Assembly (NCBI GenBank): GCA_017694835.1
Contig: JADIMJ010000040.1
Location: forward strand, 555 to 64,554
Reading direction: 5' to 3'
Origin: Candidatus Cryptobacteroides gallistercoris
GTDB lineage: Bacteria; Bacteroidota; Bacteroidia; Bacteroidales; UBA932
DNA length: 64,000 nucleotides
A program made the translations under genes and the position numbers. Position 1 is the first letter of the stretch; every line of letters begins with the position of its first letter. The notes beneath the pieces are model-generated. The model made no database searches. It had not been told where the DNA came from and worked only from the letters and a program-made list of their open reading frames with translations. Positions 26,531-38,334 of the stretch are shown here, piece after piece.

Positions 26531-29500
26531 TTACCATCCGCCTCCAAGTGCTTTATAGAGTTCCGTCAGCGCTATGTACTCGTTGGCAATTGCGTTGCTG
26601 AGTTCGACCTGGGCGTCAAAATAGCTTCTCTGGGCGTCCAGCACATCGAGATAGTTCAGGATTCCGTTGATATATTGTGAGCTGGCCAGAGATACATATT
26701 TGCGGGACGCTTCCTGAAGGTCGAACTTCAGGTTGGTGTTCTCCCGTGCGGAATTGAATGTGACTACGGCATCATAGACTTCCTTGACGGCCTGCATCAC
26801 ATTCTTTTCATATTCAAGCTTGGCCTGATTGTATTCGGAAATTGCCGCCCTGAATGCTGCCTTGCGCTTGCCGAATTCAAAAATCGGTGATGCAATCCCT
26901 GCAGCGGCGTAATAGAACGGGGACTTCAGCACATCGAGGAATGAATTGCTTTCAAGGCCTCCGGAAAGGTCGATGACGAAAGTCGGAAACCGCTCTGCCT
27001 GCGCCACTCCTACTGCGGCCTCGGCTGCCCTGAGCCTTTGCCATGATTCCATGAGGTCCGGACGGCGCTCCAGAAGCTGTGACGGGATGCCGGTCGGCAA
27101 AATGTCCCTGTATGACAGTTCCAGCACCTGCCTCGGCCTCTTCATTTCGTGCGGATAGGTGCCTGTCAGAAATGCCAGTTCGCTTTCCTTGACGGCAACT
27201 TTCCTTTCAAGGTCAGGGACAAGGGACGCTGTGGTGGCCAGTTCCACAAGGGCCTGCTGGTGCGGGATTTCTGATGTCAGGCCTCCGTCAGCGCGGAGTT
27301 TGGCCTGCTTGACTCCTTCCTGGCGTGTCTCCAGTGTGCGTCTGACAATTTCTAGTTCGTTGTCGAGGGAAAGAAGTTCGAAATATGTCTTGGCTACTTC
27401 AGAGACAAGGGTCATCTGCAGAGCCCTCTGCGCCTCTATGCTTGCCAGATATTCGGCCATCTTTTCCCTGCTGGCCCACCTGAGGTGTCCCCAGATGTCG
27501 ATTTCCCATCGCAGGGCGATTTTCGGACCGAGCTCGGGATCATTCGGATTTGCCTCATTACCGCCGTAATTGTTGTATTCATTGTTGGCATATGCCTTGG
27601 CGGAAATGGACGGCCAGAGTTCTGACCTCTGGATTCTGTACCTGCATTCAAGTTCCCGGATCCGTTCAGCTGCAATCAGCATGTCCTTGTTGTACTCGAG
27701 GGCCTGCTTTATGAAATTCTGGAGGGTGGTGTCGGCATACAGTTCCCACCATTTCACATCTGCCAATGTCAGCGAGTCTGCTGCAGGGGATGCCGCCATA
27801 TACTGTTCCGGCAGATTGAGTTCAGGCTCGGCACAATGTTTTGCCGGCGAGCATGAGGCTGCCGAGGAGCCTGCTATGATGACGGCAGCTATGACGGCTG
27901 CCCCGGACCCTGTGACTTTGGATTTTCCGGACATCTTGTTCTTGAGTTTATATATCCATACGAAGAAGAACGGCACGAATGTGATGCCAAGCGTTATGGC
28001 CACAATCATTCCGAAGAATACTCCGGTACCGATGTTCTGGCGGCTGGCGCTTCCAGGCCCAGTGGCGAATACGAGAGGAAGCATGCCGAGGATGAAGGCG
28101 AGGGATGTCATCACGATAGGCCTGAACCTGAGGTGTGCGGCCGTGACGGCAGCCTCTTCTATCGGTTTCCCTTTTTCTACCTCTTCTTTGGCGAATTCTA
28201 CGATGAGGATGGCATTTTTCGCCACAAGTCCCACAAGCATCACAAGTCCGATCTGGAAATACACATTGCTTTCCAGGCCGACAATCCAGATGCCGAGATA
28301 TGCTCCGGCAATGGCAATCGGCAGGGAGAGGATTACTGCAATCGGCACTGACCAGCTCTCATACTGGGCGGCGAGCACGAGGAATACGAACAGAAGCGCA
28401 AGTCCGAGCACAAGTCCTGTCTGGCCACCTTCTTTCTTCTCCTGGAATGAAAGTCCGCTCCATTCTATGTCAATGTTGGACGGCAGGTGTTCATCTGCGA
28501 TTTCCTCCAGGATGTCCATCGCCTGCCCGGAGCTGACTCCATGTCCGGCCTCTCCGGTGATTGTGGCCGAGTAGTACATGTTGAATCTCTTGATGGTGCC
28601 GGGGCCTGTGGTGTACTGGGTGTTGCCGAGGGCCGTCACCGGAATCATGGCTCCGCTGTCGCTCTTGACGAAGAACAGGTTGAGGTTGTCCTTGTGTGCC
28701 CTGTACGGGGCATCTGCCTGGAGGTATACCCTGTAGACACGGTTGTACATGTTGAAGTCATTCACATATATTGAGCCGGTGAAGGCTTTCAATGTGGAGA
28801 ATACATCGGACAGGGGAACTTCCAGAAGCTGTATCTTGTCCCTGTCGGCGTCAAAATAGAGCTGCGGGATATTTTTCTGGATTCCGGAGGCAAGTCCGGT
28901 GAGTTCTTTCCTTTGGGAAGCGTAGAAAAGAAGGGTGTCCGCCGCAGCCTGAAGGTCGTCATATGTGGCGTCGCCGCGGGCTTCAAGCACCATGGAGAAA
29001 CCTCCTGAAGTGCCGAGTCCCGGGATTACTGCAGGACTGCTGATATAGACCTTGCTTTCAGGATACAGGGAAAGGGTGTCCCGAACCATCTGCATCATCT
29101 TGTTGATGTCGGTCTCTTCGCGCTCGTTCCATGGCTTCATTATGACAGTCAGGGTGCTGTTGGACTGGCTCGTGCCGATTCTCGGGCTTGAGCCCGTCAC
29201 ATTCAGCACATATTCTATGTCATGCTGCCTGAGCAGGAAATCCATGGCACGGTCGGTGACTTCCCTTGTCCTTTCGAGAGTCGCGCCTACGGGAAGCTCA
29301 AGCTCCACGGTGAAATAGCCCTGGTCTTCCTGAGGCATGAAACTCTTGGGCACAAGCTGTGAAAATGCCCAGATGCATACCACAGTCACCCCGAAGAGGA
29401 CAAACATTCTCGGGGAGTGCCTCAGGCTGGCATGTATGACTTTGGCATAAAACGAATTGCCGGCATCGAATCCCTGGTTGATCTTGCGGAAAAGGAAATT

Positions 29501-31021
29501 TTTCCTGGCATTCGCGTCATGCGGCTTGAGCAGTCTGGAGCACATGACAGGGCTCAGCGTCAGGGCGACTATCGTGGAGATGATGACGGATACCGCGATG
29601 GTGATGGTAAACTGCCGGAACAGCTGTCCCGTGATACCTGAGAGGAAGCTCACCGGAATGAATACTGCACAGAGCACGAGTGACATGGCGATGAGGGCAC
29701 TTCCGATGCCGCTCATGGCTTTCTTCGTGGCTTCATAAGGCGGCAGATTCTCTTCTGCCATGATTCTGTCCACATTCTCGACCACCACGATGGCATCGTC
29801 CACCACAATACCGATGGCAAGTATCAGTCCCAGCAGGGTCATCATGTTGAGGGAAAAACCGAACACGAGCATGATGCCGAAGGTTCCGATAAGGGATATC
29901 GGCACCGCTATGGCGGGAATTATTGTCGCCCTCCAGCTCTGGAGAGAGAGGAAGACCACGAGAATCACCAGGAAAAGAGCCTCGAAGAGGGTCTTGTACA
30001 CATGGTGGATTGATTCCGAAATGTAGGTGGTCATGTCGAACGGGATGTCGTATGTGATGCCGTCCGGGAAATTCTTGCTGATTTCCTCCATGGTGGCCTT
30101 GACGTCTTCGGCGACCTGCATCGCATTTGCCCCCGGAAGAGTGTACACATACATTACGGCCGCATTTCCTCCGTTGATGCCGCTCTCGGTGTTGTAGGAC
30201 TGGGCTTCAAGTGATACCCTTGCCACATCCTTTATCCTGATGATGGCCCCGTCGTCACCTGTCCTGACCACAATGTTCTCGAACTGGCTTACTGAAGAAA
30301 GCCTTCCGGTGGCTGTAATCGGGATAGTCACATCCACATCGCTGATTGGCTGCTGTCCGAGCACTCCGGCCGCAGACTCCCGGTTCTGGTCCTTTATCGC
30401 GCTTGTGAGGTCGTCGACGGTAAGGCCGAGGCTTGCCAGCTTGTCCGGCTGCACCCATATCTGCATTCCGTAGTAACGGCTTCCTACATTGGACACTCGT
30501 CCTACTCCCGGCACACGGCGGAGCATGTCAAGCACATTGAGCGTGGTGTAGTTGCTCAGGTATATTTCATCGAATTTCGGGTCGTCCGAAAGCACGGTGA
30601 TGGTCATGAGGCGGCTTGCTGCCTCCTTTTCCACCGAGATGCCGTTCTGCACCACTTCTGCCGGAAGCCTGGATTCCGCCAGCTTGACCCTGTTCTGCAC
30701 TTCGACAGCCGCAAGGTCAGGGTCACTTGAGATGTCAAATGTCAGGGTGGCCGAGAAGCTTCCCGAATTGGTGTTGGTGGATTCCATGTAGAGCATGCCC
30801 GGCGTGCCGTTCAGCTCCTGTTCAATAGGAGTCGCCACCGCCTGTGCGACTGTCTGTGCGCTCGCTCCCGGATAGGAAGCCGAGATTTTCACTACAGGAG
30901 GAACAATCTGCGGATACTGGTCCACAGGCAGGAGCATGAGGCCTATGAATCCGACAAGCACGATGATAATCGATATGACTATCGAGAAGACGGGCCTGTC
31001 TATGAAGAAGTCTGATTTCAT
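26531..31021 (-). CDS. HAE1-type RND permease fused in frame to a NodT/TolC-family outer-membrane lipoprotein
   Basis: About 1030 aa AcrB-like part (GIVVDDAIVVVEN, AKNAILIVEF, RFRPIVMTS), then signal-like helix + AASC, then OMF motifs (WWELYAD..L, WEIDIWG, LLERRPD, YKALGGGW); no stop between them. Confidence 0.9.
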   Translation of the reverse strand: MKSDFFIDRPVFSIVISIIIVLVGFIGLMLLPVDQYPQIVPPVVKISASYPGASAQTVAQAVATPIEQELNGTPGMLYMESTNTNSGSFSATLTFDISSDPDLAAVEVQNRVKLAESRLPAEVVQNGISVEKEAASRLMTITVLSDDPKFDEIYLSNYTTLNVLDMLRRVPGVGRVSNVGSRYYGMQIWVQPDKLASLGLTVDDLTSAIKDQNRESAAGVLGQQPISDVDVTIPITATGRLSSVSQFENIVVRTGDDGAIIRIKDVARVSLEAQSYNTESGINGGNAAVMYVYTLPGANAMQVAEDVKATMEEISKNFPDGITYDIPFDMTTYISESIHHVYKTLFEALFLVILVVFLSLQSWRATIIPAIAVPISLIGTFGIMLVFGFSLNMMTLLGLILAIGIVVDDAIVVVENVDRIMAEENLPPYEATKKAMSGIGSALIAMSLVLCAVFIPVSFLSGITGQLFRQFTITIAVSVIISTIVALTLSPVMCSRLLKPHDANARKNFLFRKINQGFDAGNSFYAKVIHASLRHSPRMFVLFGVTVVCIWAFSQLVPKSFMPQEDQGYFTVELELPVGATLERTREVTDRAMDFLLRQHDIEYVLNVTGSSPRIGTSQSNSTLTVIMKPWNEREETDINKMMQMVRDTLSLYPESKVYISSPAVIPGLGTSGGFSMVLEARGDATYDDLQAAADTLLFYASQRKELTGLASGIQKNIPQLYFDADRDKIQLLEVPLSDVFSTLKAFTGSIYVNDFNMYNRVYRVYLQADAPYRAHKDNLNLFFVKSDSGAMIPVTALGNTQYTTGPGTIKRFNMYYSATITGEAGHGVSSGQAMDILEEIADEHLPSNIDIEWSGLSFQEKKEGGQTGLVLGLALLFVFLVLAAQYESWSVPIAVILSLPIAIAGAYLGIWIVGLESNVYFQIGLVMLVGLVAKNAILIVEFAKEEVEKGKPIEEAAVTAAHLRFRPIVMTSLAFILGMLPLVFATGPGSASRQNIGTGVFFGMIVAITLGITFVPFFFVWIYKLKNKMSGKSKVTGSGAAVIAAVIIAGSSAASCSPAKHCAEPELNLPEQYMAASPAADSLTLADVKWWELYADTTLQNFIKQALEYNKDMLIAAERIRELECRYRIQRSELWPSISAKAYANNEYNNYGGNEANPNDPELGPKIALRWEIDIWGHLRWASREKMAEYLASIEAQRALQMTLVSEVAKTYFELLSLDNELEIVRRTLETRQEGVKQAKLRADGGLTSEIPHQQALVELATTASLVPDLERKVAVKESELAFLTGTYPHEMKRPRQVLELSYRDILPTGIPSQLLERRPDLMESWQRLRAAEAAVGVAQAERFPTFVIDLSGGLESNSFLDVLKSPFYYAAAGIASPIFEFGKRKAAFRAAISEYNQAKLEYEKNVMQAVKEVYDAVVTFNSARENTNLKFDLQEASRKYVSLASSQYINGILNYLDVLDAQRSYFDAQVELSNAIANEYIALTELYKALGGGW

Positions 31022-31057: not shown

Positions 31058-32284
31058 TCAGTCAATCGGCACATGAAGCTGGTCTGCCCTTCTGGCCTTC
31101 ATTCCGTGCTGGAGCTTGTGGAAGCCTTCTGTCACAATCTGTTCTCCCGGGAGCAGTCCCCTTTCCACCACGACATTGTTGCCTGTCTCGGGGCCGAGCT
31201 CGATGAATCTTCTTTCCACGACATTGTCATTTCTGAGCACGAATATATAAGAGCCGTCCTTTTCTATTTCAACAGCCTTTGTAGGGACTACGACCGCATC
31301 CTCCCGCACATCAAGCAGAAGTGTCACATTGGTGAACTGCCCCGGGAGCAGTTCCCTGTCCGGATTCGGGATGTCGGCGTGTACCGAGAATGTCCCTGAC
31401 CGCGAATCCACCTGAGGGTCGGCAAAGTCCACGAGCCCGCGGTATTTGTACACGGATTTGTCCGCAAGGGTGATGGTGACATACGGGTCCCATTTCCTGA
31501 GTGAGTCCTTCTGCCCGATGTTCACATTCCTCGCCTTGCTTATCTGATAGTCGAGGTCGGTCATCTTGAATTCCACCGTGACAGTGTCGCTCTTGACGAT
31601 TGTGGCGAGCAGGGACTGTCCTCCGGGACCCACAAGAGTCCCGATGTCGGCGTGTCTCTCGCTTATGTAGCCGCTGATAGGTGAGCGTACCGTGGTATAG
31701 CTCAGCGCCAGTTCATCCTGCTTGAGGTCAGCCTCGCTCATGAGGACTTCAGCCTTGGCGCTTTCGTATGAGGCGATGGCATTGTCGAGGTCCAGCTGGC
31801 TGGCGGCCTTCTGGTCAAACAGCGGCCGTATGCGTTCAAGGTCTCTTTCTGCCTTGAGTTCCATGGCCTTGGCTTTTTCAAGCATGGCCTTTGCCCTGTC
31901 GACCGTAGCCTTGTACTGGCGCGGGTCAATGATGAAGAGCACCTGGTTTTTCTTGACATATGTTCCTTCCTCGAAAAGCATCTGCTCCAGATAGCCTTCC
32001 ACTCTTGCGCGGACTTCAACAAACTGCTGCGCCGTCACGCTTCCGGGGTATTCCCCGTATATCTCCACATCTTCTGTCGTTACGGTCTCGGTGCTGACAA
32101 CCGGGATGACTTCTTCTGCGGGGGCAGGCCTCGTGAGCCATATTATTGCCCCGGCAACGGCAGCGGCGACAATGCCGATGGCCGTCCAGTGCCGCCAGTC
32201 AAGTTTCTTGATTTTAACGACGAAGTATTGCGAACCTTTGCCTACATTGGCGTATGTGTCCTTCAGAAATTGCGATCCTTTCAT
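31058..32284 (-). CDS. RND periplasmic adaptor (MFP)
   Basis: VEVRARVEGYL, VRSPISG, LLPGQF; start MKGSQF downstream of minus-strand TATATTTG. Confidence 0.93.
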   Translation of the reverse strand: MKGSQFLKDTYANVGKGSQYFVVKIKKLDWRHWTAIGIVAAAVAGAIIWLTRPAPAEEVIPVVSTETVTTEDVEIYGEYPGSVTAQQFVEVRARVEGYLEQMLFEEGTYVKKNQVLFIIDPRQYKATVDRAKAMLEKAKAMELKAERDLERIRPLFDQKAASQLDLDNAIASYESAKAEVLMSEADLKQDELALSYTTVRSPISGYISERHADIGTLVGPGGQSLLATIVKSDTVTVEFKMTDLDYQISKARNVNIGQKDSLRKWDPYVTITLADKSVYKYRGLVDFADPQVDSRSGTFSVHADIPNPDRELLPGQFTNVTLLLDVREDAVVVPTKAVEIEKDGSYIFVLRNDNVVERRFIELGPETGNNVVVERGLLPGEQIVTEGFHKLQHGMKARRADQLHVPID

Positions 32285-32391
32285 AAAAAGAAAATTGTTC
32301 CAACCTGCAAATATATGCATAATTTGCATTTATCCCCTCTTTATCCGGGTCTCTTATGCAATTTGAATATTATTTTGTATTTTTGTAGGAA

Positions 32392-32805
32392 ATGTCAAAA
32401 TCAATAGAAATACTGGAAAGGAAGGGAGTCAGGGTCACCTCAATAAGGATTCTCGTGCTGGAGGCCCTGATTGATTCGTCGTATCCGATGTCGCTTTCGG
32501 ATCTGGAGACAGAACTGGACACCGTGGACAAGTCAAGCATATTCCGGACCCTGGAAGTCTTTGAGAAACATCATATAGTACATTCAATAGACGACGGCTC
32601 CGGTTCTGTCAAATATGAAGTCTGCGGGGGACGCGACAACTGCACCATTGCAGACATGCACACTCACTTCTATTGTGAAAAATGCCACAGGACATTCTGT
32701 CTCAAGGACATTTCCGCCCCTCTTGTCGACCTTCCCGAAGGATTCAAAGCCAGTTCAGTCAACTATATCATAAAAGGAATCTGCCCGGAGTGCCGCAGGA
32801 TATGA
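32392..32805 (+). CDS. Fur-family metal-responsive repressor
   Basis: RVTSIRILV, DKSSIFRTL, HTHFYCEKC, GICPEC. Confidence 0.92.
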   Translation: MSKSIEILERKGVRVTSIRILVLEALIDSSYPMSLSDLETELDTVDKSSIFRTLEVFEKHHIVHSIDDGSGSVKYEVCGGRDNCTIADMHTHFYCEKCHRTFCLKDISAPLVDLPEGFKASSVNYIIKGICPECRRI

Positions 32806-32852
32806 CATGGCTACGGCAGGACATTCATGAAATACCTTGAAATCGTCAACGC

Positions 32853-32993
32853 GGCCGGTGGATACATGAAATGGCGTCCAACGGCCGTGATTTTCCCGCA
32901 AAAGTGTGGCCGTTGGCATTTTGAAAATACCATCGGGCGTGAAAAATCAGCAAAACCGTGCCCGATGGACAGCATTTTGTGCTTCCACCGGGC
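32853..32993. repeat. Array of alternating inverted 9-mers (CCAnCGGsC / GsCCGnTGG), REP-like
   Basis: Half-sites at 32853, 32878, 32908, 32930, 32960, 32985; two perfect 9-bp-arm, 39-nt hairpins (32878-32916, 32930-32968). Confidence 0.75.
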
Positions 32994-33166
32994 GCTCTGC
33001 TGGACATGGGATTGCCTTCTGCGACTAGTGCCAGTTTGCCGGAACTTATGTTTCCATCGCATTGAACCGAATTTGATTATATATTGAAATCTGGATGAAA
33101 TTTTCTATTTTTGAAAATACGGACTCAAATCCGGGATTTTGACTCTATGGAAGAGGAATCAGACCT

Positions 33167-35983
33167 ATGGATACCAGAAAATCTTTTACAGCCATAATCT
33201 TAGTTATCAGCTTTATAAGCCTGCATGCACAGAATCCGGTACAGAAAGGCATCGTCAGGACTGCCCTGCGACCCGACAGGGAAATCGTCTACCTTTCCGA
33301 TGTCAGCATACGGCAGAGAGGCGGACACAACACCGTACTCAGTAGTGGTGACGGTTCTTTTGAGATGACTCTGCCGGATATCCGTATCGGCAGTGCATTT
33401 TATATCAGCTCTGTCCGTAAAGCGGGATATGAACTTGCCGACAATGCTACCATAGGCAAGGCATTTACTTATTCGCCTGAAGTTCCGATAGAGATTGTAA
33501 TGCTCGACTCCAGAGCCAAGCAGGAGGACATAATCAGAATTACAAGCAATGCCTACTCCCGCGCGGAGAAAGAATATGCAAAGAAGATGGCTTCCCTTGA
33601 ACAGCAACTGCAGGACAAAACTCTATCAGAAGAAAATTACAGACAACAACTGCGGGAACTCCAGTCTGGCTTTGAGAAATACGAGTCCCTGATCAGTGAC
33701 ATGGCCGAACGGTATGCATCTGCCGACTATGCAACAATAGATTCACTGAATGCAGCTATTAATGTGGCCATAGAAAACGGCAGCCTGGAGCAGGCAGATT
33801 CTCTCATTTCCACTGTTGGCCCGCTTGACCGGCTGGTCAAGGAAAGTCATGAAGTGATGGCTAATGTCCGAAAAAAACAGAAAATCGGAGAAGCAATTAT
33901 GGAACAGGTCTCTCGCGAGATGACATACATCGAAGACAGCAACAAAAGGCTGGGAGATTTGCTGTACAGCAAATACAGCATTGCCCTCTCCCGATTTGAG
34001 ACAGACTCCGCGGCTTACTATATAACCATGCGAGCGGAACTGGACACGACGAATATTGAGTGGCAGAATGAAGCAGGGTCATTCATAAGTGAATATGTGG
34101 CTGATTATGATATGGCGATGGCGTTATTTCAGAGAGTATTAAGAATAAATGAAGAGAAATATGGAGAAAATCATCCGGACATAGCAACATCGCTCAACAA
34201 TATCGGTATGGTTTACGCAAAGCAAAGCGACTATGGCAGAGCTCAGTGTTATTATAATAAGGCTCTCAAAATCCAGACAGAACTATTGGGCGAAAGTCAT
34301 CCGGATGTAGCTGCATCACTTAACAATATCGGTATAATTTACACCAAACGAGGCGACTATGACAGAGCTCATGGATATTATATCAGAGCCCTCAAAATCC
34401 AGACGGAACTATTGGGCGAAAGACATCCGGATGTAGCCACATCGCTCAACAATATCGGTATGGTTTACACCAAACGAGGTGACTATGACGCGGCTCTGAA
34501 ATATCTTGATAGGAGCCTCATGATCCGTACTGAACTCTTTGGCGAAAGTCATCCGGCAGTAGCCAAGTCATTCAACAACATTGGAGGTATTTACGATATT
34601 CTGGGAGAGTATGGCAGAGCACAGGAATATTATGATAGAGCCCTCAAAATCCAGACTGAACTATTTGGTGAGTCCCATCCGGATGTGGCTACATCACTCA
34701 ATAATGTCGGTATGGTGTATATAAAACAAGGCGACTATGACCATGCTCTGGAATATCTTTGCAGAAGTCTCAGAATTCAGATAGAACTCTTTGGCGAAAG
34801 TCATCCGAATGTAGCCGCATCATACAACAATATCGGTATGGTTTACACCAAACGGGGAGGTTATGACAGAGCATATGGATATTATAATAAAGCCCTTAAA
34901 ATCTGGATAGAACTCTTTGGCGAAAGTCATCCGAATGTAGCCACATCATACAACAATATCGGTATGGTTTACACCAAACAAGGCGACTATGGCAGAGCAC
35001 AGGAATATTATGACAAAGCTCTAAAAGTCAAAATTAACTTATTTGGCAAATCCCATCCGGATGTAGCCACATCATACAATAATATAGGTATGGTTTATAC
35101 TTATCAAGGAGACTATGGCCGAGCTATGAAATATTATAATAAAGCCCTTAAAATTCAGATAGACCTCTTTGGCGAAAGTCATCCGAATGTGGCTGCATCA
35201 CTCAATAATTTAGGTATGCTTTACACAAACCAAGGCGCCTATGGCCAGGCTCTGGAACATCTTGACCGGAGTCTTAGAATCCGGACAGGACTCTTTGGTG
35301 AAAGTCATCCGGATGTAGCAACATCGCTCAATAATATAGGTATGGTTTATTACTATAAAGGTGACTATGACAAGGCACAGGAATATTATATAAAAGCCCT
35401 CAAAATCTGGACAGAACACTTTGGAGAGAGTCATCCGGATGTCGCTGCATTACTCAACAATATCGGTTATATTGGAATGATTTACATCAATCAAGAAGAT
35501 TATGACAAAGCTCTGGAATACTTTATCAAGGTTCTTGGAATCGAAAGAGAATTTTGTGATGAGAACGATTATACGATTTTAAAGACATATAATAATATAT
35601 ATGATTGCTACATAAAAGCAATCAAAACATCCGGATTCTATATTCCTTCATACAGGGACTTCATCTCTGAAATGGCATTTATTGTCACGGTTGTATCTGA
35701 AGATTCCTCTGCAGCGGGTCTGGGAATGTCAGGAGAATATTACCTGTTGGAATACGAAGATTGGACTCAGTGTAGTTATATCAATATCTATGAGAAGAAT
35801 ATGCGTCTCAGAGGTAAGCCCAAAGACATTCTTGTCATGAAAGACGGAATCATCTCAGAACATCATTTTGAAGATACAATAGGTTTCACCATCGGATTGA
35901 AATATGTCGGCAAAGAAGAAAAAGCTTTGCTATCTGAGGCTTATGACAATTGGAAAAAACAACATAGCCATGAATACGACTGA
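33167..35983 (+). CDS. Exported tetratricopeptide-repeat protein (signal peptide, beta-sandwich, coiled coil, 42-aa TPR array, PDZ-like C-terminus)
   Basis: Signal ending SLHA-Q; 11 units of GESHPDVATSLNNIGMVY..QGDY..A..YY.KAL.I; C-terminal VTVVSEDSSAAGLGM..YLLEY resembles PDZ; TATTTTTG promoter at 33106. Confidence 0.88.
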   Translation: MDTRKSFTAIILVISFISLHAQNPVQKGIVRTALRPDREIVYLSDVSIRQRGGHNTVLSSGDGSFEMTLPDIRIGSAFYISSVRKAGYELADNATIGKAFTYSPEVPIEIVMLDSRAKQEDIIRITSNAYSRAEKEYAKKMASLEQQLQDKTLSEENYRQQLRELQSGFEKYESLISDMAERYASADYATIDSLNAAINVAIENGSLEQADSLISTVGPLDRLVKESHEVMANVRKKQKIGEAIMEQVSREMTYIEDSNKRLGDLLYSKYSIALSRFETDSAAYYITMRAELDTTNIEWQNEAGSFISEYVADYDMAMALFQRVLRINEEKYGENHPDIATSLNNIGMVYAKQSDYGRAQCYYNKALKIQTELLGESHPDVAASLNNIGIIYTKRGDYDRAHGYYIRALKIQTELLGERHPDVATSLNNIGMVYTKRGDYDAALKYLDRSLMIRTELFGESHPAVAKSFNNIGGIYDILGEYGRAQEYYDRALKIQTELFGESHPDVATSLNNVGMVYIKQGDYDHALEYLCRSLRIQIELFGESHPNVAASYNNIGMVYTKRGGYDRAYGYYNKALKIWIELFGESHPNVATSYNNIGMVYTKQGDYGRAQEYYDKALKVKINLFGKSHPDVATSYNNIGMVYTYQGDYGRAMKYYNKALKIQIDLFGESHPNVAASLNNLGMLYTNQGAYGQALEHLDRSLRIRTGLFGESHPDVATSLNNIGMVYYYKGDYDKAQEYYIKALKIWTEHFGESHPDVAALLNNIGYIGMIYINQEDYDKALEYFIKVLGIEREFCDENDYTILKTYNNIYDCYIKAIKTSGFYIPSYRDFISEMAFIVTVVSEDSSAAGLGMSGEYYLLEYEDWTQCSYINIYEKNMRLRGKPKDILVMKDGIISEHHFEDTIGFTIGLKYVGKEEKALLSEAYDNWKKQHSHEYD
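34163..35557 (+). repeat. 126-bp coding tandem repeat, 11 units
   Basis: ggcgaaagtcatccg(g/a)atgtagc..catca..caacaatatcggtatggtttac recurs every 126 bp; last unit has a 9-bp insertion. Confidence 0.93.
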
Positions 35984-37127
35984 CAATACCCGAACCTACA
36001 AGTACTTCGCCTTCATTAGCTATAGCTCACTGGACATCAGGTGGGGCAAGCGGCTGCAGAAGAAGCTCGAGAACTATAGCATGCCGGCTGCCATGTGCCG
36101 GAAACACGGCTGGACGCGTAAGCCGATAAATCCGCTGTTTTTCGCACCAAGCGATATTCAGCCAGGAGGATTATCAGAAGAACTCAAGGCAAGGCTGCGG
36201 GTTTCAAAGAATCTTATTGTAATTGGAACTCCGGCATCAGCGAAATCCAAATGGGTTGCTGCAGAAATAACATATTTTCGGAGCCTCGGACGGGAGAAAA
36301 ATATTCATGTCTTCATAGTTGAGGGAGAGCCGCACAGTGGGAATCCAGACACGGAATGCTTCAATTCGGCATTGGATAAGTTGAGTATACCAGAGATTCT
36401 CGGGGCCAATATCCACGCAAAAAATTACAGATGGGGCTGGGTGAACAGGGAGTATGCATATGTACAGTTGATTACGAAACTGCTCGGAGTGGAAGTCGAC
36501 GACATCTGGCAGAGGCATAAACGCTGGTTGAAAGAAAAAATTATCCTGTGGACCGTCGGTGCGATGTGTGTGGTGGCTGCAATCGCCGGGGTTTGGTTAA
36601 TGAATCAGCCGATAGACATTCGCGTAAGCCTTGAAGAAACCTCCGTACATAACAGTTATTTGCCGCCGATGCAGGATGCTTCCGTAACCTTCACCTTTGA
36701 CAACGAAATAAAGACAGATACCGTCAGTTCGTTCAGCGATAATGTACTGTTCAGGAACATCCCCCATCATTTTCTCGGGAAGCGGGTCCGGGCGCAGGTC
36801 GCCTGCAGGGACTTCATCAGCATAGATACGGTTTTCGCCCTTACCAAAGACTTGGCATTGGGTCTGTGCAGGAATCCTGAAATATATGGCAATATCAGCT
36901 TCCGCCTCTGGAATCCCATGTCCGAAAAGACAGTCCCTGGCTGCAAGGTGGAAATAAACGGGATAGAGACAGTCTCCGATGAAAACGGGCGGGTGACCTT
37001 GTTCATCCCTCTTGAATCTCAGCGGACCCGATACAGTATTTCGGCAGAAATTCCGCTGCAGGACACGACTGTCCATATGCCTTGCGGGAAAAATGATGTG
37101 ATTCTGGCTTGTCCTGAGGTAAAATGA
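35970..37127 (+). CDS. TIR-domain protein with single TM helix and extracytoplasmic beta-rich domains
   Basis: YFAFISYS, LIVIGTPASAKSKWVAAEI (conserved Glu), TM IILWTVGAMCVVAAIAGVWL, then VPGCKVEING..TVSDENGRVTL; ATG overlaps the TPR gene end by 14 nt. Confidence 0.9.
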   Translation: MNTTDNTRTYKYFAFISYSSLDIRWGKRLQKKLENYSMPAAMCRKHGWTRKPINPLFFAPSDIQPGGLSEELKARLRVSKNLIVIGTPASAKSKWVAAEITYFRSLGREKNIHVFIVEGEPHSGNPDTECFNSALDKLSIPEILGANIHAKNYRWGWVNREYAYVQLITKLLGVEVDDIWQRHKRWLKEKIILWTVGAMCVVAAIAGVWLMNQPIDIRVSLEETSVHNSYLPPMQDASVTFTFDNEIKTDTVSSFSDNVLFRNIPHHFLGKRVRAQVACRDFISIDTVFALTKDLALGLCRNPEIYGNISFRLWNPMSEKTVPGCKVEINGIETVSDENGRVTLFIPLESQRTRYSISAEIPLQDTTVHMPCGKNDVILACPEVK

Positions 37128-37221: not shown

Positions 37222-38334
37222 ATGGAGATGAAAAAGAAATTGTTTTCTGTATTCAACAACGGGTCTGTGGCGTGGAAGATATTTTCTTACAGCGCGGCGG
37301 TTCTTGTGTTTGTGCTTGCCGTGTGGATAGGCGGGGCATTTGTTTACAATATTGTCATAGACAATTGGATAAGGCCGGCTTTTGACGGCCGTTGCTGGGG
37401 AGACAGGTATATCAGCAATACTATTTCCTATCAGTGGCGGTACGGGAGACGGGGTGGAGCGAGGCTCTATGATGAGGCTTCCGGGAAGGTGCTCATGAGA
37501 AACATCGACTGGGTCGCGACATCGGACGACAATGACAGTCTGGCCGTCTTTGCCAAAGGCCGGAAAAGAGGGTATCTCAACAGATTTACGGGAGAGGTGG
37601 TCATTCCTCTTGAATTCACCAGGGCCTGGGTGTTTTCGGAAGGCCTTGCCGCAGCGGAAAAGGACGGAAGCCTCGTGTTCATCGACCATTCTGGCAGGGT
37701 GGTCATTGACAAGGGGGTCGGAGTGGACTCAGACAGGCAGGGTTATGCTTTCCATGACGGCTACTGCATCCTCGGGGAGCCTGAGGGCGGAACAGTCGGG
37801 ATGATAGACAAGTCCGGGAACTGGGTGCTGGAGCCGGTCTATGACAATGTGAGCAACGACAGCGGATTCTGGAAGGTAAGGAAAGACGGTCTTTATGGCC
37901 TGTTTTCGGCAGAACTTGACACGGTTCTCACCATATCGAAAACGAGGATATGTATATTTGAAGATGCAATAGAAGCAGGACATCCGGACCATACCTCCCG
38001 GCTCTATGATTTTGAAGGAAATGTCATTGAAGACTTCCGCATTGACGGAGTCGAGAGCATGTACTATGAGACAGGGGAACTGCTTGCCGGTACCGGGGAA
38101 TACGATGAATACAGCGGGGAATACGACACATACGACATTGTCTATGATGCGGCAGAATGTTTCCGCTATTATGTCAATCCGTATGGCGCCGCATATTACT
38201 ACGGGCTCATGGACAGGCAGGGCCGTAGGACTACACCGCCGCTTTACTCGTCGATAACAGCCATAGGCAAGGACCGTTATCTGTGCCAGCCGAACGGGGT
38301 CATAATCGACGGCAAGGGCAGAAAAGTCGAGTAG
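37222..38334 (+). CDS. Membrane-anchored WG-repeat protein
   Basis: N-terminal TM; RGYLNRFTGEVVIP..FSEGLA, GMIDKSGNWVLEP.YD, YGLMDRQG..PPLY repeats. Confidence 0.85.
   Translation: MEMKKKLFSVFNNGSVAWKIFSYSAAVLVFVLAVWIGGAFVYNIVIDNWIRPAFDGRCWGDRYISNTISYQWRYGRRGGARLYDEASGKVLMRNIDWVATSDDNDSLAVFAKGRKRGYLNRFTGEVVIPLEFTRAWVFSEGLAAAEKDGSLVFIDHSGRVVIDKGVGVDSDRQGYAFHDGYCILGEPEGGTVGMIDKSGNWVLEPVYDNVSNDSGFWKVRKDGLYGLFSAELDTVLTISKTRICIFEDAIEAGHPDHTSRLYDFEGNVIEDFRIDGVESMYYETGELLAGTGEYDEYSGEYDTYDIVYDAAECFRYYVNPYGAAYYYGLMDRQGRRTTPPLYSSITAIGKDRYLCQPNGVIIDGKGRKVE

Follow-up and report, generated by a model that had tools for sequence, protein, structure and literature searches.

A single-pass membrane TIR protein and an exported TPR partner as a candidate trans-envelope sensor-effector pair in Bacteroidales

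Can a bacterial TIR domain be controlled by a protein that resides on the other side of the inner membrane? The question is raised by two overlapping genes in a 64,000-nt stretch of DNA (hereafter, the window) from contig JADIMJ010000040.1 of the Candidatus Cryptobacteroides gallistercoris assembly GCA_017694835.1. Gene 1 encodes an exported protein with a long TPR array, and gene 2 encodes a TIR protein with one transmembrane (TM) helix; a first-pass annotation had interpreted the two as a periplasmic sensor coupled to a cytoplasmic TIR domain, in the manner of Toll receptors. Every element of its description of the two genes was found again, and the observation is confirmed; the interpretation as a whole is partly supported. 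We infer that the pair is a TIR-based conflict or signalling system, and we give roughly even probability to its being a two-protein sensor-effector module across the inner membrane. There is good support for export, membrane topology, TIR identity, and genetic linkage. The particular feature of the system would be its split design, in which the exported TPR partner is predicted to dock on a sandwich-type ectodomain of the membrane TIR protein.

Gene 1 occupies the open reading frame (ORF) 33167-35983 on the forward strand and encodes a protein of 938 aa. On the longest reading, the ORF of gene 2 extends from 35904 to 37127, also on the forward strand, and its ATG at 35970 yields a protein of 385 aa (35970-37127), which opens with MNTTDNTRTYKYFAFISYS. 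This start is the likely one because homologues of 376-381 aa begin at the equivalent position; it leaves gene 2 sharing 14 nt with the end of gene 1, the overlap that had been described before. The remark that the DNA is richer in AT than its surroundings also holds, with a GC content of 0.36-0.47 over positions 33000-36000 versus 0.52-0.57 in the flanks on either side. The coordinates of all features are collected in Table 1.

The N-terminal part of gene 2 is a TIR domain by several comparisons. Residues 15-118 match the Pfam families TIR_2 (PF13676; 31.3 bits, cut-off 28) and ThsB_TIR (PF08937; 25.8 bits, cut-off 21.2), and its relatives score between 52 and 99 bits. The AlphaFold2 model, built with 69 homologues (predicted local distance difference test, pLDDT, 94.7), consists of a flavodoxin-like TIR fold, one long helix, and two beta-sandwiches. 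Foldseek matched the TIR head to MyD88, SARM1, TLR1/10, RUN1, RPP1, and the SPARTA TIRs with probability 1.00 and template modelling (TM) scores of 0.6-0.72 by target. A search of the PDB by the single sequence of the TIR domain returned marginal hits only, and the search by the family profile was the informative one: it aligned the segment SxxxWVxxEI with WCLxEL of plant TIR domains (WCLDEL in AtTIR, WCLMEL in L6), which we take to be the site of the catalytic Glu in plant TIR NADases. More generally, the Glu of the W-x-x-x-E motif in the alpha-C helix is, on our assumption, the catalytic residue of SARM1, plant TIRs, AbTir, and ThsB. Its counterpart here is Glu99 of the segment WVAAEI, a residue shared by 90% or more of the 69 relatives.

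The topology of gene 2 follows from its single TM helix (residues 191-211), which the first-pass annotation had already recognized and which is present in 68 of the 69 relatives. In the window protein, this helix is preceded by the basic segment QRHKRWLKEK and followed by an acidic flank. The same bias runs through the family: the mean net charge of the flank is +4.0 on the TIR side versus -0.7 on the other side, and the TIR-side flank is the more positive one in 66 of 68 relatives. By the positive-inside rule, these charges place the TIR domain in the cytoplasm and the sandwiches in the periplasm.

The C-terminal beta-rich domain of gene 2 resolves in the model into two sandwiches, which Foldseek related to sandwiches of the CnaB, pilin, SdrD-B, and TIE types. 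Neither this ectodomain nor the N-terminal domain of gene 1 has a Pfam hit in the window; their relatives weakly match CarboxypepD_reg (29.1 bits, cut-off 32.3), and ESM Atlas clusters are known that combine TIR_2 with CarboxypepD_reg. The domains of the two proteins diverge at different rates. The TIR domain is the slowest, with a mean p-distance of 0.22, whereas the values are 0.54 for the ectodomain, 0.58 for the partner sandwich, and 0.62 for the partner helices.

Gene 1 begins with a signal peptide of regular build, in which the basic n-region MDTRK, a 14-residue hydrophobic core, and the cleavage site LHA/Q follow one another. At this length, and with a 19-residue hydropathy of at most 1.53, the core does not qualify as a TM helix. 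This layout, proposed earlier for gene 1, was found in 48 of 48 aligned partner homologues, where it is followed by a conserved mature end (AQ/TQQGYVKTxGR), and the Gln that directly follows the cut agrees with the 'Q-rule' of signal peptidase I substrates in Bacteroidetes. No lipobox Cys is present at the cleavage site of gene 1, the hydropathy scan detected no further hydrophobic segment, and its tail matched neither the type IX secretion family Por_Secre_tail nor any other Pfam family. The sequence suggests that gene 1 is exported by Sec and that the periplasm is its likely location, because both the type IX secretion tail and the lipobox are absent. The arrangement that had been put forward, a periplasmic sensor and a cytoplasmic TIR domain, is thus consistent with the signal peptides of the partner family and with the flank charges of the TIR family.

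In the mature part of gene 1, Pfam identified 11 TPR_12/TPR_10 stretches, with the units spaced exactly 42 residues apart between residues 332 and 793; at the DNA level the array appears as a 126-bp tandem repeat (72% matches). The count of eleven 42-aa repeats made by the first-pass annotation agrees with this result. Hypervariability of the array was considered and rejected, since the units are ordinary consensus-like TPR_12 repeats that vary at about ten positions. The first 330 and the last 149 residues match no Pfam family and contain no Pfam enzyme domain. The AlphaFold2 model (27 homologues, pLDDT 88.2) shows, in order, the signal helix, a beta-sandwich (residues 25-114), two long helices (115-185), further helices up to residue 332, the TPR solenoid, and an alpha/beta domain (836-933).

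The sandwich and the helical region are the conserved core of the partner family. The helical region of gene 1 aligns with partners from other loci at BLAST E-values of 1e-15 to 1e-47, and short partner paralogues of about 315 aa, which are common, contain only the sandwich and the helices and have no TPRs. The tail was described earlier as PDZ-like, and this description stands in part: it is a small alpha/beta domain whose nearest ESM Atlas clusters are PDZ_6 and PDZ_2 (features 0.90-0.91, structural TM score 0.5-0.66), but it has no Pfam hit. It is kept in a minority of partner homologues only. Its assignment to the PDZ domains is a supported lead, not a proven one.

Genetic linkage ties the two proteins together. 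Homologues of gene 2 are numerous (3348 at E<=1e-3 in a collection clustered at 90% identity, and 9565 representative clusters in a 50% library), and a search of species-representative genomes, seeded with the 14 closest sequences, confirmed at least 539 stretches matching the TIR protein. All locus counts given here refer to the best 80 of these, which contain 79 intact TIR ORFs from different species. They come from Prevotella, Muribaculaceae, Paludibacteraceae, Bacteroidaceae, and other Bacteroidales, mostly of gut and rumen. A partner gene adjoins the TIR gene in 59 of 79 loci and lies within 3 kb in 9 more, and the co-occurrence of the pair in other genomes is well supported. The genes around the pair are otherwise unrelated from locus to locus. 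The number of partner paralogues varies between one and four per TIR gene, and many loci have two to four.

The distribution of the system is patchy. Among 401 genomes sampled evenly from the order, a TIR relative was found in 8 and is full-length in 5, and 4 of these 5 also have the partner. In its own family the gene was found in 7 of 201 genomes, with no hit among 13 sampled congeners. The layout recurs in divergent versions from other families of the order: first comes a protein of about 361 aa that has one TM helix, an N-terminal domain without assignment, and an ectodomain resembling CarboxypepD_reg; it is followed by three or four exported TPR partners and then by a homologue of the RCK-type membrane protein. 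Elsewhere, the same TIR-TM head is found on WD40 propellers and RHS repeats. One protein of 820 aa (P0144) has an nSTAND1 NTPase fused ahead of a TIR-TM-sandwich protein, and it links the family to STAND-type conflict proteins.

Physical contact between the two proteins is predicted, with supporting covariation. The first-pass annotation had noticed a similar pattern in the two beta-rich domains, and hhalign aligned residues 38-90 of gene 1 to residues 317-366 of gene 2 with a probability of 84% (E-value 7.6e-6). A complex of gene 1 residues 22-330 and gene 2 residues 212-385 was modelled with ESMFold2, each chain being supplied with its own alignment. The complex score (ipSAE) is 0.63, with runs between 0.62 and 0.64, while the best of three controls reached 0.15. 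In the calibration of the method, 58 of 80 solved complexes and 2 of 110 mismatched pairs came up to that mark, counts that apply here only roughly, since own alignments were used. The three runs share at least 90% of contacts, and the pLDDT of the partner is at least 88. In the predicted interface, which joins the two sandwiches named beforehand, residues 23-86 of gene 1 (strand 54-58) face residues 305-379 of gene 2 (strand 371-379). A partial Mantel analysis of 49 adjacent pairs points in the same direction: the partner N-domain correlates with the ectodomain when the TIR domain is controlled for (r 0.32, p ~2e-4) and not with the TIR domain when the ectodomain is controlled for (r 0.06, p 0.17). 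The N-terminal sandwich of gene 1 is accordingly predicted to dock on the distal sandwich of gene 2.

The pair also appears to be subject to turnover at its chromosomal site. A metagenomic relative (L109), whose TIR is 83% identical, occupies the same site with the gene order Fur, three partner genes (733, 324, and 936 aa), TIR, WG-repeat gene, and RND operon, whereas the window has one partner gene. The DNA of the two is collinear over window positions 32139-32804 and from 33962 on, and collinearity is broken over 32805-33961 (compared with L109:692-4679), an interval that takes in a dispersed repeat together with the N-terminal module of gene 1. This comparison indicates that both the number of partners and their N-terminal modules vary between close relatives. 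To judge from these alignments, the stretch from the Fur-like gene to the TIR gene is a mosaic that likely arose by recombination. Gene 2 itself is unevenly similar to the TIR protein of the relative (P0004; 79% identity in the TIR domain, 72% in the helix and TM segment, 78% in the first sandwich, and 98.8% in the distal sandwich), a pattern that points to a further recombination breakpoint, within gene 2. The congeners have no more than the adjacent RND operon in common with the window, and their divergence farther out is too great to resolve the boundaries of an insertion.

Taken together, these observations are compatible with the following mechanism. By sequence and prediction, gene 1 is exported by Sec and stays in the periplasm, and gene 2 is a type II single-pass protein of the inner membrane, with its TIR domain in the cytoplasm and its two sandwiches in the periplasm. 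The N-terminal sandwich of gene 1 is predicted to pair by its edge strand with the membrane-distal sandwich of gene 2. The TPR solenoid and the PDZ-like tail would bind a periplasmic ligand, which could be a foreign protein, exposed protein C-termini, or a breakdown product of the envelope. Ligand binding would alter the oligomeric state of the membrane TIR protein via the long juxtamembrane helix, and the assembled TIR domains, equipped with the catalytic-type Glu, would cleave NAD+. The result might be either NAD+ depletion and growth arrest or a signal derived from ADP-ribose.

The sensory half of this scheme has parallels in known envelope sensors. The TPR array of gene 1 is a sub-threshold match to the NCBIfam model of FimS from Porphyromonas gingivalis (156.8 bits, cut-off 600), the TPR part of which is periplasmic. 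The PDZ domains of DegS and RseP in the sigma-E pathway, classic sensors of envelope stress, read exposed C-termini in the periplasm. The output of these systems runs via a histidine kinase or via a proteolytic cascade to a sigma factor, whereas here it would run via a TIR domain, to which the sensor has no covalent link.

A role in conflict (defence) fits the data better than a housekeeping one, because the distribution is patchy, the GC content is low, the number of paralogues changes, and the periplasmic parts evolve fast. Exported caspases with leucine-rich repeats (LRRs), found in 13 loci, are a further feature of the conflict type.

Several results weigh against the trans-envelope module. 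TLR2 retains the Glu that aligns with Glu99, and we know of no reported NADase activity of the TLR TIR domains; the Glu alone is no proof of NADase activity because TLR2 keeps it. No defence island was found around the pair, the flanks of which contain efflux pumps and a Fur-like regulator, no relatives of gene 2 were found in phage genomes, and the PADLOC results give no link to known defence beyond generic TPR and weak ThsB models. The partner gene was not seen in the DNA fetched for 11 of 79 loci, several of them at contig ends. With respect to docking, the idea that the interface residues are the most conserved ones was rejected, since they vary more than the other residues of their domains do; in the ectodomain their entropy is 3.04 versus 2.56 for the rest, with 99% of random residue sets being at least as conserved. 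Finally, gene 2 and its L109 counterpart share 98.8% identity in the distal sandwich, while the N-domains of the L109 partners are only 42-45% identical to that of gene 1. In view of these identities, docking, if real, either tolerates much sequence change or the pair is a recent recombinant. The trans-envelope module nonetheless ranks first, and most of the remaining probability falls on two variants, by signalling and by guarding, that share its anatomy.

The variant by signalling brings the system close to Thoeris. Here the TIR domain would produce a cyclic or linear ADP-ribose signal for separate receptors, with no killing by NAD+ drain; the receptors would be the adjacent RyR proteins, the RCK/TrkA-N-type protein, MscS-like channels, and PrsW, and for the present genome a PrsW-RyR fusion is the candidate. 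The likeness to Thoeris lies in a TIR domain of the TIR_2/ThsB_TIR type with its Glu, in a small operon, and in a patchy distribution of the accessory type. To our knowledge, ThsB proteins lack a membrane helix, and their partner is an effector that binds the signal; by contrast, the TIR protein described here is membrane-anchored and has a periplasmic ectodomain, and its constant partner is exported and has no enzymatic or nucleotide-binding domain. Among the neighbours in the window, no Thoeris-type effector with a signal-binding domain (SLOG, Macro, caspase-type ThsE, or others) was found beside the TIR gene. The hits of PADLOC 2.0 were confined to generic TPR models and to weak, partial matches of ThsB models (39-49 residues); the system is not modelled there, and in this respect the novelty proposed by the first-pass annotation is borne out. 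Literature on membrane TIRs, on TIRs with a CarboxypepD_reg ectodomain, and on bacterial RyR-domain partners likewise yielded no account of this system, in a search that leaves most subscription-journal papers outside.

The gene neighbourhoods in other genomes speak for such receptors. When all ORFs of the 80 loci were clustered and same-strand neighbours were counted, the proteins found beside the pair included a membrane protein with RCK features (hereafter, TM-RCK; 20/79 loci), RyR-domain proteins (15), MscS-like channels (7), and PrsW immediately 3' of the TIR gene (4). The TM-RCK family has weak TrkA_N/RCK matches and a RyR-like C-terminus and is kept in the divergent versions (L105-L107); its members include L015:2133-4304, L044:3936-5981, and L106:13159-15111. 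The genome of Ca. C. gallistercoris itself encodes the PrsW-RyR fusion, an intramembrane protease with a C-terminal RyR domain, at 1308-2498 of a 3-kb contig (C114, L104). The RyR, TM-RCK, MscS-type, PrsW, and LRR-caspase proteins are candidate extra sensors or downstream effectors. On the other hand, none of these genes belongs to the cassette in the window, which consists of the two-gene core only, and about 50 of the 79 loci have none of them either. No SLOG, Macro, or SAVED domain was detected, the TrkA_N and RyR matches of the membrane protein are below the Pfam cut-offs, and the contig with the PrsW-RyR gene has an uncertain position in the genome. We regard this variant as possible and, on balance, unlikely.

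In the variant by guarding, which we rate next and also as unlikely, the exported partner would keep the TIR domains apart or inactive. The TIR protein would be freed to self-associate when the envelope is damaged or when the partner is captured or cleaved, for instance by a protein of the invader or by the exported caspase of some loci. The docking prediction and the covariation agree with it just as they do with ligand sensing, the short partners of about 315 aa without TPRs could be pure regulators, and six loci have the exported LRR-caspase gene placed between partner and TIR. Nothing in the sequence favours one sign of regulation over the other, however, and the long consensus-like TPR array with its PDZ-like domain resembles a surface for binding ligands more than it does a simple inhibitor.

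The caspases deserve a separate description, since an exported caspase is unusual. In the six loci concerned (L028, L032, L050, L055, L059, and L062) the caspase gene follows a gene for a protein of about 285 aa. In the example at L032:4418-5926, which encodes 502 aa, a signal peptide and LRRs of the BspA type are combined with a caspase domain (Peptidase_C14). A RyR gene lies 3' of the TIR gene in five of the six, and all six have an exported phosphoesterase-PQQ-propeller gene after it.

How far does the comparison with Toll receptors reach? In layout there is a clear correspondence, with a single-pass membrane protein, a cytoplasmic TIR domain, and an extracytoplasmic recognition part, and the TIR fold matches TLR1, TLR10, and MyD88. 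A separate secreted protein that is predicted to bind the ectodomain recalls Spaetzle, the ligand-adaptor for Toll. The orientation, however, is reversed: the TIR domain of gene 2 is N-terminal (type II), whereas TLRs are type I proteins with N-terminal LRRs and a C-terminal TIR domain. Two small CnaB/transthyretin-like sandwiches are found here in place of the LRRs, and the repeat sensor, made of TPRs, is on a separate chain. As to output, enzymatic cleavage of NAD+ is more probable than the adaptor recruitment of TLRs. The likeness to Toll receptors drawn by the first-pass annotation is one of layout and TIR fold and does not extend to the orientation, to an LRR ectodomain, or to a repeat sensor within the receptor itself; beyond the TIR domain, it is an analogy and not homology. 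In its fullest form, a secreted adaptor would capture a cue and dock on a TIR receptor, and a messenger derived from ADP-ribose would be read by RyR, RCK/TrkA-N-type, or PrsW proteins, a sequence of steps that we consider doubtful.

A purely structural role is improbable. The TIR domain would then be an interaction scaffold, and the pair would tether or assemble a periplasmic complex and have no part in conflict. Animal receptor TIRs do act as scaffolds, and TLR2 with the same Glu is one of the facts in favour; so are the flanks of the window, which encode envelope efflux systems, and the lack of known defence genes adjacent to the pair. Such a role is hard to reconcile with the very patchy distribution (7/201 genomes of the family, 8/401 of the order), with flanks that differ by species and paralogue numbers that differ between close relatives, with the co-occurrence of caspase genes, and with the strong purifying selection on the TIR domain, in which the Glu is almost invariant.

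The weakest alternative is a cytoplasmic TIR-TPR system in which the signal peptide is not used. Its precedents are the BcTir/BcTpr operon of Bacillus cereus, a two-gene TIR and TPR operon that defends against phage (bioRxiv 10.1101/2023.05.26.542521), and Thoeris type VIII, which uses the TPR-containing effector ThsI, composed of a CMP-hydrolase and TPRs (bioRxiv 10.64898/2025.12.03.692087). Both resemble the present pair as two-gene TIR and TPR operons and are reported to act as complexes, but BcTpr and ThsI have an N-terminal nucleotide-cleaving domain, and the accounts that we read give no indication of export. Gene 1 has neither a nucleotide-hydrolase nor a glycosidase head and instead is exported and has a sandwich, helices, and a PDZ-like tail; with a signal peptide in 48 of 48 aligned homologues and a TM helix and ectodomain in the TIR protein, this alternative is contradicted by the anatomy and very improbable.

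Table 1. Coordinates of the features of the gene pair in the window and occurrence of associated genes among the loci with an intact TIR gene
Feature	Position or number of loci	Strand	Evidence or remark
Gene 1, exported partner, 938 aa	33167-35983	+	ORF, Pfam TPR_12 (4e-171), AlphaFold2 (pLDDT 88.2), linkage to TIR genes
Signal peptide, residues 1-21, predicted cleavage LHA/Q	33167-33229	+	basic n-region, hydrophobic core
N-terminal beta-sandwich, residues 25-114, predicted docking domain	33239-33508	+	AlphaFold2, hhalign, predicted interface 23-86
Helical region, residues 115-331	33509-34159	+	AlphaFold2; long helices 115-149 and 155-185 first
Eleven 42-residue TPR_12-type units, residues 332-793	34160-35545	+	Pfam, spacing, 126-bp DNA repeat
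C-terminal small alpha/beta PDZ-like domain, residues 836-933	35672-35965	+	AlphaFold2, ESM Atlas neighbours
Gene 2, single-pass membrane TIR protein, 385 aa	35970-37127	+	ORF, homologues, AlphaFold2 (pLDDT 94.7)
Cytoplasmic TIR domain, residues 12-172	36003-36485	+	Pfam TIR_2 and ThsB_TIR, Foldseek
Candidate catalytic Glu99, motif WVAAEI	36264-36266	+	conservation, profile alignment
TM helix, residues 191-211, end of long helix 176-211	36540-36602	+	hydropathy 2.23
Periplasmic ectodomain, beta-sandwiches 215-300 and 308-380	36612-37109	+	AlphaFold2, Foldseek
Downstream neighbour, WG_beta_rep membrane-anchored protein	37222-38334	+	Pfam WG_beta_rep (7.9e-20), N-terminal TM helix
Partner gene adjacent upstream of TIR gene	40/79 loci		
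Partner gene adjacent downstream of TIR gene	19/79 loci		
Partner gene within 3 kb of TIR gene	9/79 loci		
Partner gene not seen in fetched DNA	11/79 loci		several at contig ends
Membrane protein, 650-725 aa (TM-RCK)	20 loci		weak RCK/TrkA_N matches, RyR-like C-terminus
Small RyR-domain proteins	15 loci		
Signal-peptide BspA-LRR caspases	13 loci		between partner and TIR genes in six
MscS-like channels with 364-aa protein	7 loci		
Exported phosphoesterase-propeller	7 loci		
PrsW intramembrane proteases directly 3' of TIR gene	4 loci		

The pair is flanked in the window by two RND efflux operons, a Fur-like gene, and, downstream, a gene for a membrane-anchored WG-repeat protein; no tRNA genes were found within the window. 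There is no terminator-like site between gene 2 and the WG_beta_rep gene, and such a gene lies 3' of the TIR gene in the two closest relatives and in only one of 80 other loci. The WG-repeat gene was rejected as a component of the system because it is not conserved beyond the closest relatives.

Two further observations concern the upstream side. A dispersed repeat of about 150 bp lies just 5' of gene 1 (32850-32998) and has more than 30 copies with 70-88% identity on many contigs of the same genome; it overlaps an ORF of 86 aa (32827-33087) that belongs to no Pfam family. It is a genome-wide REP/MITE-like element and not a feature of the cassette. Farther upstream, the ORF 26531-31021 on the reverse strand (1496 aa) encodes a complete AcrB-type RND permease fused to an outer-membrane-factor (OEP) domain. 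In one congener (L101), it is covered by a single tblastn alignment over residues 1-1496 (70% identity), and in another (L102) residues 1-1026 and 1057-1388 are matched separately.

In the bacterial TIR systems that we know of or have read about, the invader is sensed inside the cell. A periplasmic sensor wired to a TIR enzyme would mean NAD+-based immunity or signalling that is triggered from the envelope, the compartment reached first by phage tails, ejected proteins, lysins, and type VI effectors. If the complete series of steps from a secreted adaptor to a RyR, RCK/TrkA-N-type, or PrsW reader were true, it would be the first envelope-level pattern-recognition pathway in bacteria and would tie TIR products to RyR domains outside animals. 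The loci follow a modular grammar: a single TIR gene is combined with between one and four exported partners, to which caspase, RyR, channel-like, and PrsW genes may be added. Given its small size, the system may serve as a tractable model of how a single-pass helix switches on a TIR domain, a question that it has in common with the Toll-like receptors of animals.

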